A stretch of 64,000 nt of DNA from a virus (lineage: Duplodnaviria; Heunggongvirae; Uroviricota; Caudoviricetes), in IMG/VR virus record IMGVR_UViG_2974564184_000001, positions 977-64,976 of that record, one strand, 5' to 3'. Below are positions 46,944 through 49,866 of the stretch, one piece after another; position 1 is the stretch's first letter; each line of letters starts with the position of its first letter. The notes below the pieces were generated by a model. It saw only the letters and a list, made by a program, of their open reading frames with translations, was not told the DNA's origin and did not search any database. Both the position numbers and the translations under genes were made by a program.

Positions 46944-47160
46944 CAATGGGCTTTGGGAGTAGTGTTTAATTACGGGTGAGGAAACCCTGGCCCTCCAGCT
47001 TAGAGGGACACCACGTAGGGTTCGAATCCCTACCTCCGCCCACCAACCTTGAAATGAGAGAGATACGGGTTCGACTCCCGTTCTTGCTGGCCCGGCCTCC
47101 TGTAGTGGGACAGGGCGATAGCTTAAATGGAAGAAAGTGCTCTCATTTCAAACACTTAGA
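46944..47160 (+). ncRNA. tRNA-like degenerate region with two T-arm motifs and a 12-bp long-range inverted repeat
   Basis: GTAGGGTTCGAATCCCTAC...CCGCCCACCA and ACGGGTTCGACTCCCGT without clean cloverleaves; TTGAAATGAGAG (47049) pairs with CTCTCATTTCAA (47143). Confidence 0.35.
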
Positions 47161-47170
47161 GGAGAACAGA

Positions 47171-47356
47171 ATGTTCGGATCTCTGCTGAAAATTGCAACT
47201 GACGTAGTGTCCACGGGCGTCACAGTCGTTGCGGCGGTCGCTGAACCGTTTGTAGGAATCGCTGGTGAGGCTATTGCAGCCGCTGACCAGATGATCGTTG
47301 CACCAACTGCGGAAGTAGTTGGAGAGGTTTGCGATTCGGTGAAGAGTGTCGTATGA
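47171..47356 (+). CDS. small hydrophobic protein
   Basis: GAGGAG RBS; MFGSLLKIATDVVSTGVTVVAAVA... Confidence 0.4.
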   Translation: MFGSLLKIATDVVSTGVTVVAAVAEPFVGIAGEAIAAADQMIVAPTAEVVGEVCDSVKSVV

Positions 47357-47529
47357 TTCCTTCCCCGGGTATGACCTTTACGATTATGGGCGTTGCCTGT
47401 GTCGTTATATTTCTCTGGTATCATTGGTCGGCTAAAGAAGTCGGCATGACAACCGAAGAAATCATTGCTGAGTCCCGCCGTAAACACGGTCTGGACGTTC
47501 AAAATAAACTCTTAGAGGAGAAAAATTAA
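47353..47529 (+). CDS. small membrane protein
   Basis: ATGA overlap; TFTIMGVACVVIFLWYHW TM helix. Confidence 0.4.
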   Translation: MIPSPGMTFTIMGVACVVIFLWYHWSAKEVGMTTEEIIAESRRKHGLDVQNKLLEEKN

Positions 47530-48140
47530 TGTCTGATACCAAAACCGTAGTGTCCGTAACCGAACGCGCAACCAAAGCCGTGACCGCAGCCGCTGGCAAC
47601 CTGACCAAGGTTGTTCTGGAACTGCAAACCCTGGCAGAAGGTTCTGAGCAGATTTCTCAGGAAATCCAGTTCAAGCAAAAAGAACTGTCTCAGATTGACA
47701 CTCAGTACGACGAAAAACTGGCAGAAGCCAAGTCGGTTCTGAAAATCAAAACACTGGAAAACGAAGACGCGGTTGTTAACAACATCCTGAAAGCTCGTGG
47801 GCTGGTAAGCATCAATCCTCAGGAAGTGAATCAGCTTCGTACCGACCTGGCAGTAGCACTTGACAGTAACGAAGACGCAGTGAACTCCGCTGTCTCCTCT
47901 GCACAGGCTTCAAGTGCTCGTGAACTGCAAGCTCGTCTGGCGACGCAGGAATCAACGCATAAGATCGCTGTTGCTGAACTGAACGCAGGCAACTCTGCAA
48001 AAGACAGCCGCATCAAAGACCTGGAAGCTCAGGTTACCGAACTGCGTGACCAGATCAAAGCAGAACGTGATACCCGTCTGGAAATCGCTAAAGCTGACGC
48101 TAACCGCGCCGCTGTAGTGGTACAGACTGGCAAGCAGTAA
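47529..48140 (+). CDS. coiled-coil protein
   Basis: 203 aa, heptad-rich, Ala/Glu/Lys. Confidence 0.5.
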   Translation: MSDTKTVVSVTERATKAVTAAAGNLTKVVLELQTLAEGSEQISQEIQFKQKELSQIDTQYDEKLAEAKSVLKIKTLENEDAVVNNILKARGLVSINPQEVNQLRTDLAVALDSNEDAVNSAVSSAQASSARELQARLATQESTHKIAVAELNAGNSAKDSRIKDLEAQVTELRDQIKAERDTRLEIAKADANRAAVVVQTGKQ

Positions 48141-48227
48141 TAACTGCACCGCCGACAAGGATGTCGGCAGATTTACCTGATTTACCTTTGGCACATTAAT
48201 TTCAAAATTCATAGAGGAGAATGCTAC

Positions 48228-48866
48228 ATGGCTAATATTTCTATCACTCGTGCTCTTGCGACTCTCAAGTCAATCGATGCGAAGATCGTTAAGCAGACCG
48301 AGCGTCTGGACACTGTTGCTGTGACCGATGGTCAAGGTGACTTCCGCAAGCTGGTTGGTAAGCTCGGTACTATTGCTGACTTTAGCACCAAAGCAGAAAC
48401 GCAGATTCAGTCTCTGACTGATATGCTGAACACCCGTGACGCACTGAAAGCTGCGATCATCCAGTCCAACGCGGTGACTAAAATCACCATCGGTGGCAAA
48501 GAAGTGACAGTCGCCCAGGCGATTGAGCAGAAGCGTAGCATTGTCCTGCGTCAGAACCTCTTAGCGAAAGTTAAGAGCCAGGTAAATCTGGGCAACGCAC
48601 TTCTGGTTAAGCGTACAGCAGAGTTCGAAGGCGGCTTGTCCGTTAAGCTGGACACCCTGCTGGGTCGTGACCGTGCTACCAAAGGCGAAGACGTTGAGGG
48701 CATCACCAAGCCTCTGCGTGAACGTGGTGAACCTTCACTGCTTGATCCGGTCGGGATGGTTGCATATTCCGAGAAGCTGGACACAGAGATCGATGACTTC
48801 CTGACCGAAGTAGATTTCGCTCTGTCTGAATCCAACGCTCGTACCGAGGTTGAGTTCACTGCATAA
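48228..48866 (+). CDS. hypothetical protein
   Basis: 212 aa, GAGGAGA RBS. Confidence 0.5.
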   Translation: MANISITRALATLKSIDAKIVKQTERLDTVAVTDGQGDFRKLVGKLGTIADFSTKAETQIQSLTDMLNTRDALKAAIIQSNAVTKITIGGKEVTVAQAIEQKRSIVLRQNLLAKVKSQVNLGNALLVKRTAEFEGGLSVKLDTLLGRDRATKGEDVEGITKPLRERGEPSLLDPVGMVAYSEKLDTEIDDFLTEVDFALSESNARTEVEFTA

Positions 48867-48895
48867 ACTTTTTTCAGGAATCCTTGAATAAACCC

Positions 48896-48924
48896 TTGCG
48901 ATTCCTGTGATTAGCTGATAAAGT
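48896..48924 (+). promoter_or_regulatory. promoter TTGCGA-N17-TAAAGT (CTGATAAAGT family)
   Basis: same -10 context as promoters at 45575 and 55663. Confidence 0.4.
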
Positions 48925-49283
48925 TTCAACATGTTGTTTTCGGTATCACGGTGTGGAAACATCTTACCTCTGCTGGGGTGGGAGGTTAAACTGCCCCAAA
49001 CATACATTGAAGAATGTTTATCTGGTATGATAACCTGAAAATCTGATTTCGAATCGAATTCGAAAAAGCCTTTCAACGTTCATCGTTCAAGACTCATTTG
49101 GGTGAGTCCACTTCGGCTCTTCGGAGGTTGTGGAATCCCCTTCAAGTATGCAAAGATTAAAGTTTAAACCATCAAACTTAAAATCTTAAATACCAAGTCT
49201 CGTTCAAACCCTGGGTTAAAGGTTCGTCGGTCATAAGATATGCCGCACCACTCCTCCAGGCGTCTATCGGAGACAACATGCTT

Positions 49284-49359
49284 GCTTGTATAGCTCAGTT
49301 GGTAGAGCACTTCACTTGTAATGAAGGGGTCGCGGGTTCGAAGCCTGCTGCAAGCACCA
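49284..49359 (+). tRNA. tRNA-Thr (TGT)
   Basis: GCTTGTA...loop CTTGTAA...GGTTCGAAGCC...TGCAAGCACCA. Confidence 0.7.
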
Positions 49360-49361
49360 TT

Positions 49362-49469
49362 GCCGGGTAAGCTCTTTGGCAAGGGCGGGGCCATCAAAGC
49401 CCGAAAAATGTGTCCGAACTAACAGTACGACTAAATACATAGGCGGTTCGATTCCGTCACCCGGCTCCA
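49362..49469 (+). ncRNA. over-long (108 nt) tRNA-like gene: perfect 7-bp acceptor GCCGGGT/ACCCGGC, T-arm GGCGGTTCGATTCCGTC, TCCA end
   Basis: cannot be folded as standard tRNA; possible intron-containing or degenerate tRNA. Confidence 0.3.
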
Positions 49470-49655
49470 AATTTATTTCGTGAAGCTACTGAACCTCTTA
49501 AAAGCTCCAGCATCTATTGGGATGTGATTTCAGTGTCGGCTTTGATATCAAGCTGATGAATGGAATGGCGTAGGCTCTGTTTCGCAAACGGGGACGCTTC
49601 GGGGCGGTGACGGCGGTCACCAGGACATCGGGGCTTCACAAAATAGATTTCACAA

Positions 49656-49682
49656 CCCCGCTTGACGGGGTTTTGTTCTTTG
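49656..49682 (+). terminator. Rho-independent terminator
   Basis: CCCCG-CTTGA-CGGGG followed by TTTTGTTCTTT. Confidence 0.65.
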
Positions 49683-49768
49683 CGGGATTGGTGGTATTGG
49701 CAGTACACACGGGAGTTAAATCCCCGTAGGCTTCGGCCTTGAGGGTTCGAATCCCTCATCCCGCACCA
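49682..49768 (+). tRNA. tRNA-Leu (TAA), type II
   Basis: GCGGGAT...loop GTTAAAT...long variable arm GGCTTCGGCC...GGGTTCGAATCCC...ATCCCGCACCA. Confidence 0.6.
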
Positions 49769-49774
49769 AATTAT

Positions 49775-49866
49775 GCAGGTTGCGCCCGATTACTTAGAGT
49801 GGGTGTGAGAGGTCTCCCTTGGAGATCGTTTAAGAGGAGGGCCGATACAACTCCTAACCTGCACCA
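49775..49866 (+). ncRNA. tRNA-like element with perfect acceptor GCAGGTT/AACCTGC-A-CCA but non-canonical interior
   Basis: contains strong hairpin GGTCTCC-CTT-GGAGATC; no canonical T-loop. Confidence 0.3.

Follow-up and report, generated by a model that had tools for sequence, protein, structure and literature searches.

Conserved tRNA-like RNA elements in the tRNA island of Erwinia phage Hena1

Stable RNAs other than tRNAs are already known from phage tRNA clusters, and so are Y RNAs that resemble tRNAs. The former are represented by RNA C and RNA D of phage T4 (rnaC and rnaD, the species 1 and 2 stable RNAs), small RNAs of 119–139 nt which are encoded in the tRNA cluster of a lytic phage, on the tRNA strand and directly after a tRNA, and of which RNA C carries a T-arm (CCGGG-UUCGAAU-CCCGG) near its 3' end; the biological role of both is still unknown (PMC3014915). 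The latter include YrlA, the gene of which adjoins rsr and which consists of a closing helix, a short variable linker, a T-arm, a capped acceptor-like hairpin, a two-base linker beginning with U and a D-arm containing GG, with GNCGAA(N0-1)G on the 5' strand as the conserved Ro60-binding module (PMC4201824). In addition, phage tRNA genes have lately been recast as counter-measures to host defences that cut tRNAs (PMC13096335). Here we describe tRNA-like RNA elements, for which T4 RNA C/D and YrlA are the closest analogues, from the tRNA island of a 64-kb stretch of DNA. This stretch, referred to as the window throughout (positions 977 to 64,976 of IMG/VR record IMGVR_UViG_2974564184_000001, so that a window position is the record position minus 976), is 100% identical to Erwinia phage Hena1 (Vequintavirinae, Henunavirus).

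Every feature of the window from 46.3 to 56.8 kb is on the + strand. Besides 25 ordinary tRNAs the island carries at least seven structured RNA elements on this same strand (E1a, E1b, E2, E3, E3b, E4 and E5), of which E2 alone is annotated in the GenBank record of Hena1. Our analysis shows that each of them is a discrete cassette on the tRNA strand which has a defined fold and is conserved about as well as real tRNAs, and like T4 RNA C/D they are non-tRNA RNA genes with partial tRNA features that reside in a tRNA cluster and on its strand. Two architectures occur together. Class I, comprising E1a, E2, E3, E4 and, in a reduced form, E3b, has an open acceptor stem, an encoded NCCA end and a remodelled lower half; in class II, comprising E1b and E5, a T-arm, a capped acceptor-like hairpin and a D-arm are contained within a long helix. 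We consider it likely that the island encodes, besides its tRNAs, independent RNA genes which mimic tRNAs, are maintained by selection and do not decode. Because the elements show covariation, are conserved at the level of tRNAs, are spread across phage families and lack a conserved anticodon loop, they are neither intron-containing tRNAs nor decayed pseudogenes in this interpretation.

Five elements of this kind had been listed in a first-pass annotation made from the sequence alone, and all five are present on the + strand, at or within a few bases of the positions given there; E3b, which lies between E3 and tRNA-Arg, had been overlooked. In a scan for T-arms, defined as a perfect 5-bp stem with a T-loop-like 7-nt loop, 24 of the 25 annotated tRNAs were recovered (tRNA-Lys(ttt) was missed) together with five T-arms outside of tRNAs (47016, 47065, 49442, 54378 and 56600), all of which are located in the island. 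The rest of the + strand of the window contains no canonical UUCGA/UUCAA T-loop with a perfect stem, and the − strand outside the island contains two (18079 and 25345).

The number of tRNAs in the window is 25 according to ARAGORN, 23 according to Rfam at gathering thresholds and 24 with relaxed Rfam settings. The seven elements are absent from the ARAGORN list and below RF00005 (29 bits) even at E values up to 10, E5 alone giving a truncated match of 11.7 bits to the 3' half of a tRNA. For the elements, Rfam searches of the whole window at gathering thresholds and of the island at E values up to 10 gave sub-threshold matches only, and the only match of ARAGORN or Rfam to a transfer-messenger RNA (tmRNA) or intron was a permuted tmRNA at chance level (20.3 bits, E = 0.82) that reaches from tRNA-Phe to the next tRNA. 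No element was resolved as an ordinary tRNA, a tmRNA or a group I intron in these searches. Matches to YrlA in the relaxed search of the island turned out to be tRNA-tRNA junctions, which likewise give false positives for YrlA according to Chen et al. (PMC4201824).

Class I elements retain that part of a tRNA which is read during maturation, namely an acceptor stem on a T-arm, a discriminator and an encoded CCA, while the half with the D- and anticodon arms is replaced by family-specific helices and conserved loops. When the five class I elements are compared in this respect, E2 shows the complete arrangement (7-bp acceptor stem, 5-bp T-arm with a UUCRANY loop, discriminator and CCA) and E1a shows it with an acceptor stem interrupted into 4+4 bp. 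In E4 (8/5 bp, loop GUCGAUA) and E3 (7/5 bp, 11-nt loop) it is partly present, and E3b has the acceptor-like stem and the CCA and lacks the T-arm. A 5-bp anticodon stem with a conserved 7-nt loop, U33 and a purine at position 37 is found in none of E1a, E2, E3, E3b and E4. E4, E1a and E3b have no anticodon-type arm, and the loops that come closest to an anticodon loop are UUGAUCG, with C at position 37, and CAGCUUA, with U at position 37 and A33. The earlier suggestion of intron-containing tRNAs is at odds with this lack of a conserved 7-nt anticodon loop with U33, with the finding that the inserts are conserved helices, and with the absence of any Rfam intron family.

E2 (49362-49469) is a cloverleaf-shaped mimic of 108 nt for which the GenBank record gives 'tRNA-TERM, tRNA-sup(tca)'. 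It has a 7-bp acceptor stem and a T-arm (GGCGG-UUCGAUU-CCGUC) followed by U73 and CCA. The D-arm has 4 bp; RNAalifold extends it by two U-A pairs, which never vary, to 6 bp and a loop of 4 nt. The variable arm is a long hairpin which changes in length and sequence, with GAAAA and AAUACAUAGG as invariant single strands on its two sides; as read from the alignment, the changes in its stem preserve pairing. An extended variable-arm stem (AUGU/ACAU) forms in Hena1 and is not conserved in the homologues. Among 15 distinct sequences 98.7% of the cells are paired and 10 of 21 pairs are changed on both sides, compared with 33–45% for slid controls, and RNAalifold is concordant. Homologues were found in 80 phage records (Escherichia, Salmonella, Klebsiella, Cronobacter and Erwinia), almost always unannotated, as well as in 18 metagenome contigs and, with 88% identity, in the tRNA cluster of an N4-like Salmonella phage of the Schitoviridae. 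An exact search for the core pattern of E2 in 185,579 bacterial and archaeal genomes gave no hit.

E3 (49775-49866) is a cloverleaf-like mimic of 92 nt. A 7-bp acceptor stem is followed by a D-like arm with a 13-nt loop (GAUUACUUAGAGU), a 7-bp hairpin with a 3-nt loop at the position of the anticodon arm, the linker GUUUAAG, a 5-bp T-like stem with an 11-nt loop (GGCCGAUACAA), A73 and CCA. Homologues exist in Henunavirus (89%) and in Klebsiella phage KP13-26 (Stephanstirmvirinae); the middle position carries a loop of 3 or 5 nt among the homologues and, instead of it, a longer branched insert of 35 nt in KP13-26. In the KP13-26 homologue the pairing of the acceptor, D-like and T-like stems is kept through sequence changes; three compensatory pairs were counted among the homologues, this one included. 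A search of IMG/VR with the E3 pattern returned the known SNUABM_01 copy only. The first-pass annotation had held that the interiors of the listed elements cannot form a cloverleaf, which does not apply to E2 and E3, since both do fold in a cloverleaf-like manner; what is non-canonical in them is the 'anticodon' arm of both, the long extra arm of E2 and the 11-nt T-loop of E3.

E3b (49873-49937) is the reduced, 65-nt form of class I without a T-arm. It consists of a 6-bp terminal stem with a bulged U, a GCCA end and a second helix of 6 bp capped by a conserved loop of about 19 nt (UUGGCUUCCAMCGCGUGG). Its homologues are found in Vequintavirinae, in the T4-like genera Winklervirus and Roskildevirus, in Alcyoneusvirus and in Stephanstirmvirinae (KP13-26), and they usually stand directly after a tRNA. 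Among ten sequences pairing is complete (100%) in helix 1 and reaches 95% in helix 2, and seven pairs are changed on both sides; a hairpin within the loop was rejected, being 65% paired and without support from covariation. A 15-mer from the loop is found in 92 stretches of IMG/VR, true E3b being present only in Cronus, CHI14, Ro1 and SNUABM_01; the other matches are nearly all unrelated sequence, mostly one recurrent locus in contigs of about 35–41 kb.

E4 (54284-54406) is a five-way junction of 123 nt, in which an 8-bp acceptor stem is stacked on a 5-bp T-like arm with the loop GUCGAUA and is followed by A73 and a CCA end. Of its three further arms, one is a hairpin of 5 bp (loop ACGAA), one has 8 bp and the conserved loop AUACCGGUUAAUG, and the third ends in a hairpin with the loop UUGAUCG. 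It occurs in 15 phage records. With six sequences RNAalifold finds 9 of 39 pairs changed on both sides, these being located in the three further arms, and the minimum free energy (MFE) structure of the single sequence is the same fold (z = -2.1). Four extra matches of the E4 loop pattern in IMG/VR are unrelated sequences. The exact 10-mer CCGGTTAATG is present twice, in the conserved loop of E4 (54324-54333) and in the spacer before tRNA-Leu(tag) (56394-56403); the motif CCGGUUAAUG, common to E4 and 56394, occurs at the frequency expected by chance when one mismatch is allowed.

The stretch 46944-47160 had been taken as a single element with two T-arms and a 12-bp repeat. Both T-arms and the repeat are there, and they are divided between two separate elements, E1a of class I and E1b of class II. 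E1a (46948-47045) is an open tRNA mimic of 98 nt with an acceptor stem of 4+4 bp separated by a 5' UUUG bulge, discriminator A with encoded CCA (ACCA end), and a 6-bp T-arm with the canonical loop UUCGAAU; in its lower half a helix of 4 bp forks into two hairpins, the loops of which are UGAGGAAAC and CAGCUUA. Homologues with 75–85% identity exist in FENT2, GAP31, 4MG, SalP219 and EC152, and an RNAalifold analysis of three distinct sequences shows changes on both sides in 7 of 29 pairs, some of them in each half of the acceptor stem. E1a and E1b together are represented in 53 phage records. At the position of E1a, pEp_SNUABM_01 has a different element of about 145 nt (~9680-9828). The T-arm of this element is CUUGG-UUCGAAC-CCAAG, its end is GCCA, and GGUGUAU/GUACACU may form a 7-bp acceptor stem; it looks like another tRNA-mimic family.

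E1b (47049-47151) is a closed tRNA mimic of 103 nt without CCA. Its 12-bp closing helix, formed by the repeat TTGAAATGAGAG/CTCTCATTTCAA (47049-47060 with 47140-47151), encloses the linker AGAU, the T-arm ACGGG-UUCGACU-CCCGU, a capped acceptor-like hairpin, the bases UA, the D-arm GCUU-AAAUGGAAGA-AAGU and a G that precedes the second strand of the helix. The element is about 90% identical in Henunavirus and Mydovirus phages, and four pairs of the closing helix are changed on both sides between the Hena1/Mydovirus type and the GAP31/FENT2 type. A search of IMG/VR with the D-arm pattern gave more than 119 matches in very diverse viruses, this pattern probably being too tRNA-like to be specific.

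E5 (56589-56676), an 88-nt closed tRNA mimic, is a four-way junction with the same order of modules, i.e. a 7-bp closing helix (UUCUCUG/CAGAGAA), the linker UGAU, the T-arm GCAGG-UUCGACU-CCUGU, a capped acceptor-like hairpin with a UUCG tip, the bases UG, a 3-bp D-arm with a 10-nt loop that contains GG, and a G. RNAalifold finds exactly the same four-way junction, with one compensatory pair in the D-stem, and 18 phage records contain the element with 89–97% identity. What had been described as an orphan T-arm (56600-56616) is a part of this closed structure. The duplicated 5' segment reported nearby is real as a resemblance to the start of the next tRNA, but it extends to only about 14 of 18 positions and begins at 56651 rather than at 56652. 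From their modelled structures, class II elements can be regarded as a tRNA fold entered via the position of the anticodon stem, which is the circularly permuted topology of YrlA.

Overall, the identity of the elements to seven relatives is 67–98%, compared with 58–100% for the genuine tRNAs, and across genera and phage families it is 76–99%. Several compensatory changes were found in five of the seven elements (E1a, E2, E3, E3b and E4), in E1b in the closing helix only, and in E5 in one pair. Between the seven elements the T-loop core alone matches, and they are therefore regarded as independent families because they share no sequence beyond this core. E4 has been moved intact: its place is between E3 and E3b in pEp_SNUABM_01 and pEa_SNUABM_55, where tRNA-Trp and tRNA-Gln are directly adjacent, and between these two tRNAs in Hena1, the unit of 123 nt being the same. 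Recombination thus shuffles the elements as intact cassettes.

The comparison with the described systems can now be made more precise. The sequence shared between T4 rnaC/rnaD and the Hena1 elements is limited to a T-loop core of 13–15 nt, and in contrast to T4 there are at least seven families in Hena1, some of them fully cloverleaf-like and common to several phage families. Unlike tmRNA and the 3' tRNA-like structures of plant viruses, the elements have no G3:U70 alanine identity pair, no coding region and no pseudoknots. With respect to YrlA, class II agrees in all modules from the closing helix to the GG-containing D-arm, but while YrlA adjoins rsr, E1b and E5 sit in the tRNA operon of a virulent phage. 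No earlier description of the elements was found in the literature on Hena1, PVP-SE1, rV5 and Vequintavirinae, and no Rfam family covers them. What is new is the presence of at least seven families in one locus, the occurrence of the two architectures together, the support from covariation, the spread across phage families and, as modelled, the YrlA topology without Ro60.

How the elements are made can be proposed by analogy with tRNAs. They would be co-transcribed with the neighbouring tRNAs; in consensus scans few promoter-like sites were found and terminators only at 49654-49672 and 56812-56829, and these sparse transcription signals are consistent with co-transcription without proving it. 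Class I RNAs would then be released at their 5' end by host RNase P and trimmed to the encoded CCA, and would thus accumulate as stable small RNAs of 65–123 nt. The idea of the first-pass annotation that the elements might be processing substrates is plausible. Since none of them can pair with a codon, the elements would act through binding: the tRNA-like half may recruit or occupy host proteins that recognise tRNAs, and the conserved family-specific loops may give specificity. As far as can be judged from the conserved sequence of these loops and single strands, they point to sequence-specific binding, and the occurrence in different phage families is suggestive of partners that are shared by Enterobacterales as host factors rather than being phage-specific proteins.

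The genes upstream of the island (35311-45088) bear on the possible function. According to Pfam they encode a T4 Rnl1-type RNA ligase, a P-loop kinase, a metallophosphoesterase, a Sir2 family protein, a phosphoribosyl pyrophosphate (PRPP) synthetase, a nicotinamide/nicotinate phosphoribosyltransferase (NAMPT) and a DNA ligase. The DNA ligase is about 10 kb and the other genes for repair and for nicotinamide adenine dinucleotide (NAD) metabolism are 1–9 kb away from the island, and a relative is annotated likewise. This cluster probably consists of counter-defence and repair genes.

Among the four options that had been offered for the elements, tRNA-derived RNAs fit best, given their tRNA-type modules, tRNA-level conservation and compensatory changes, whereas a regulatory or decoy function is hypothetical. 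Because of the RNA repair, NAD salvage and Sir2 neighbours and the recent work on phage tRNAs as counter-defence, the most attractive hypothesis is that the elements are decoys or modulators in a conflict over tRNAs between host defences that cleave them and a phage that supplies and repairs them; we put this forward as speculation with a modest chance of being correct. A combined proposal, also doubtful when all its parts are taken jointly, is that of a toolkit in which class I RNAs are baits or inhibitors of host proteins that read the acceptor/T-arm and class II RNAs are Y-like RNAs independent of Ro60. Class I RNAs would in that case mature like tRNAs, their candidate targets being tRNA-cleaving defence nucleases or toxins, modification enzymes or aminoacyl-tRNA synthetases, and class II would work with the adjacent phage repair module of RNA ligase, kinase and phosphoesterase. 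One lead comes from E2, in which C2:G71, U73 and, apart from A1:U72 in a single metagenomic variant, G1:C72 are retained; CC moreover occupies the position of anticodon bases 35-36 in the majority of its homologues. These are glycine identity features in E. coli, so that E2 resembles the glycine identity set at the sequence level. If the toolkit proposal were true, selection by defences which the hosts have in common would explain why the elements are spread among unrelated phage families of Enterobacterales.

Several observations weigh against the interpretation of the elements as selected, independent RNA genes. For this phage group no expression, end-mapping, modification or aminoacylation data were found, including in the PhageExpressionAtlas paper. 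The alignments are small (3–15 distinct sequences from related phages), so that statistics from shuffling overstate significance, and some helices are invariant and give no covariation signal, i.e. the acceptor and T-arm of E4, most of E5 and the interior of E1b. A search of the 64-kb window for antisense targets of eight conserved loops or single strands gave only their own opposite strand or matches at chance level. A covariance model built from E1b does recover E5 as the best non-self match in the island (17.3 bits, rough E = 0.0045, full length), but this score is barely above that of junctions between adjacent tRNAs (14.8 bits). Finally, E1b in Hena1 and E3b in T4-like phages are located directly upstream of the ribosome-binding site of an open reading frame (ORF), which makes action in cis possible.

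Such a role in cis is the main rival explanation, although we regard it as unlikely. The elements would be processing or stability signals, their tRNA-like ends only directing RNase P and RNase E to cleave between the tRNAs and mRNAs of polycistronic transcripts, and closed modules, namely E1b and, in T4-like phages, E3b, would stay on the downstream mRNA as protective 5' structures. This would account for the short distance of about 10 nt from the end of E1b to the ribosome-binding site for the ORF that starts at 47171, for the ORF which follows E3b within 15–30 nt in X20 and CHI14, and for the arrangement of all elements on a single strand among tRNAs and short ORFs, where terminators are few. 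In GAP31, however, a consensus promoter is found between E1b and the next ORF, so that E1b is not part of the 5' untranslated region of this ORF there, and E2, E3, E4 and E5 are flanked by tRNAs instead of ORFs. In addition, 100–120 nt with invariant family-specific loops would be unnecessary for a mere cleavage signal, and an identity of 76–99% across phage families would not be expected of it.

That the elements are functionless, i.e. decayed tRNA pseudogenes or scars of HNH-mediated recombination as had also been considered, appears very improbable. An HNH-like ORF (55127-55549) does lie within the island, the identities of the tRNAs of Hena1 and pEp_SNUABM_01 form a mosaic of 70–100%, the E5 stretch resembles the 5' end of the next tRNA, and pEp_SNUABM_01 has a different insert at the position of E1a. 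Decay, however, is contradicted by helices that are maintained by compensatory substitutions in five of the seven families (with E1b contributing its closing helix only and E5 a single pair), by a conservation equal to that of functional tRNAs, and by the persistence of the same elements in different genera and phage families.

Another possibility is that some elements are decoding tRNAs which were parsed incorrectly, E2 being an opal suppressor or a selenocysteine-type tRNA and the others intron-containing or aberrant ones. This suggestion derives from the GenBank label tRNA-sup(tca), from a score of 39 bits of E2 with the Rfam model of tRNA-Sec (RF01852; 49361-49466), from its long variable arm and possible 6-bp D-stem with a 4-nt loop, and from its loop in Hena1, CAUCAAA, which differs in one base from the anticodon loop of E. 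coli tRNA-Sec, CUUCAAA. However, the score is below the gathering threshold of 47. A tRNA-Sec has an 8-bp acceptor stem with a 5-bp T-stem, G73 and a conserved UCA anticodon, while E2 has a 7/5 arrangement and U as the discriminator.

The loop at the anticodon position of E2 is conserved neither in length nor in sequence. In Hena1 the closing position of CAUCAAA is a C·A mismatch, and in two metagenomic variants a U-A pair replaces it, resulting in the 5-nt loop AUCAA. Most homologues have a loop of 6 nt (CAUCCA, CUUCCA, CCUCCA or CAGCCA) with the triplet UCC or GCC, and a distant group has UUAUA or UUUUA, possibly reduced to 3 nt (UAU, UUU) if a further U-A pair forms. UCA is thus restricted to the Hena1-type subgroup, position 33 is A in most homologues, and a conserved loop of 7 nt with U33 is found in none of the other elements. 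Judged by these sequences the hairpin is no anticodon arm, the annotation as tRNA-sup(tca) was rejected, and we consider misparsed decoding tRNAs to be highly unlikely.

The assumption that E1b and E5 are true Y RNAs of the YrlA family, which would tether a Ro60/Rsr protein of the host or the phage to an exoribonuclease, is hardly tenable: they share the module order of YrlA (PMC4201824), YrlA RNAs have been reported in phages that encode Ro60 (PMC4201824), and TROVE proteins with tRNA-like partners have been tied to RNA repair (PMC7824862), for which there is a module near the island, but the best Rfam match of E1b alone, to YrlA (RF02553) over the full length and with the same module order, reaches 16.7 bits (E = 0.27) against a gathering score of 69, E5 has no match to the YrlA model at E values up to 10, the motif GNCGAA(N0-1)G is absent on direct reading from the closing helices (47040-47062 and 56582-56598), and no TROVE domain was found in the 19 ORFs (10 in the island and 9 upstream) of the 148.8-kb genome that were scanned with Pfam.

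If the elements are selected, non-decoding RNA genes, RNAs of the T4 RNA C/D kind are not an oddity of T4 but are exchanged under selection among large lytic phages of Enterobacterales, and the YrlA type of permuted tRNA mimic is extended to a setting without Ro60. The families are essentially unannotated at present and E2 is mis-annotated as a suppressor tRNA; covariance models for them would correct many phage annotations, E2 alone accounting for 80 records in one collection. The families also constitute defined candidates for testing the idea of phage tRNA decoys.

The tRNAs of the island are interspersed with short ORFs, the HNH-like ORF, which overlaps the start of tRNA-Lys(ttt), and a protein with a YadA anchor. 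The latter (ORF 50111-51832, annotated 'adhesin') combines an alanine-zipper region with a YadA-like membrane anchor domain at its C-terminus (E = 5.8e-13), and by its sequence would be a protein of a lytic phage that resembles trimeric autotransporters.

Some of the tRNAs are unusual themselves. The tRNA at 56687-56768 (82 nt) is Ala(ggc) according to both ARAGORN and the GenBank record of Hena1; when read directly, the stem UUGGC/GCCGA closes the loop CUCAUAA, which gives the anticodon CAU. This tRNA has an unusually long D-loop of about 14 nt, is 94–98% conserved across genera, and its homologues in pEp_SNUABM_01, PVP-SE1 and GAP31 are annotated as tRNA-Met. An extra arm in the variable region is normally limited to Leu, Ser and Tyr tRNAs. 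Here, tRNA-Trp (54190-54276, 87 nt) bears an extra hairpin (GGGG-AAA-CCCC) in this region, and so does tRNA-Asn (55742-55827, 86 nt; GAGC-GAAA-GCUC); long Trp, Asn and Lys tRNAs are annotated in relatives, too. Orthologous tRNAs of Hena1 and pEp_SNUABM_01 differ widely in their identity (Arg-tct and Trp 100%, Cys 78%, Pro 73%, Ile 70%), and the gene order differs as well, tRNA-Ile and E4 having moved. This mosaicism and the changes in order suggest a cassette-wise exchange within the cluster.

The conservation of the remaining spacers of the island was measured as well. The spacer between tRNA-Gly and tRNA-Glu (52744-52863), which has neither a T-arm nor a CCA end, shows 98% identity to its counterpart in pEp_SNUABM_01 and 84% to that in KP13-26 of the Stephanstirmvirinae (2736-2828), and may be a further conserved structured RNA of another type. 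Two other spacers (48895-48925 and 55640-55675) contain a similar promoter-like block, CTTGCR...TGATAAAGT, which was not reported by the sigma-70 consensus scan and the flanks of which are conserved across genera of Vequintavirinae; these blocks may represent a phage-specific class of promoters.

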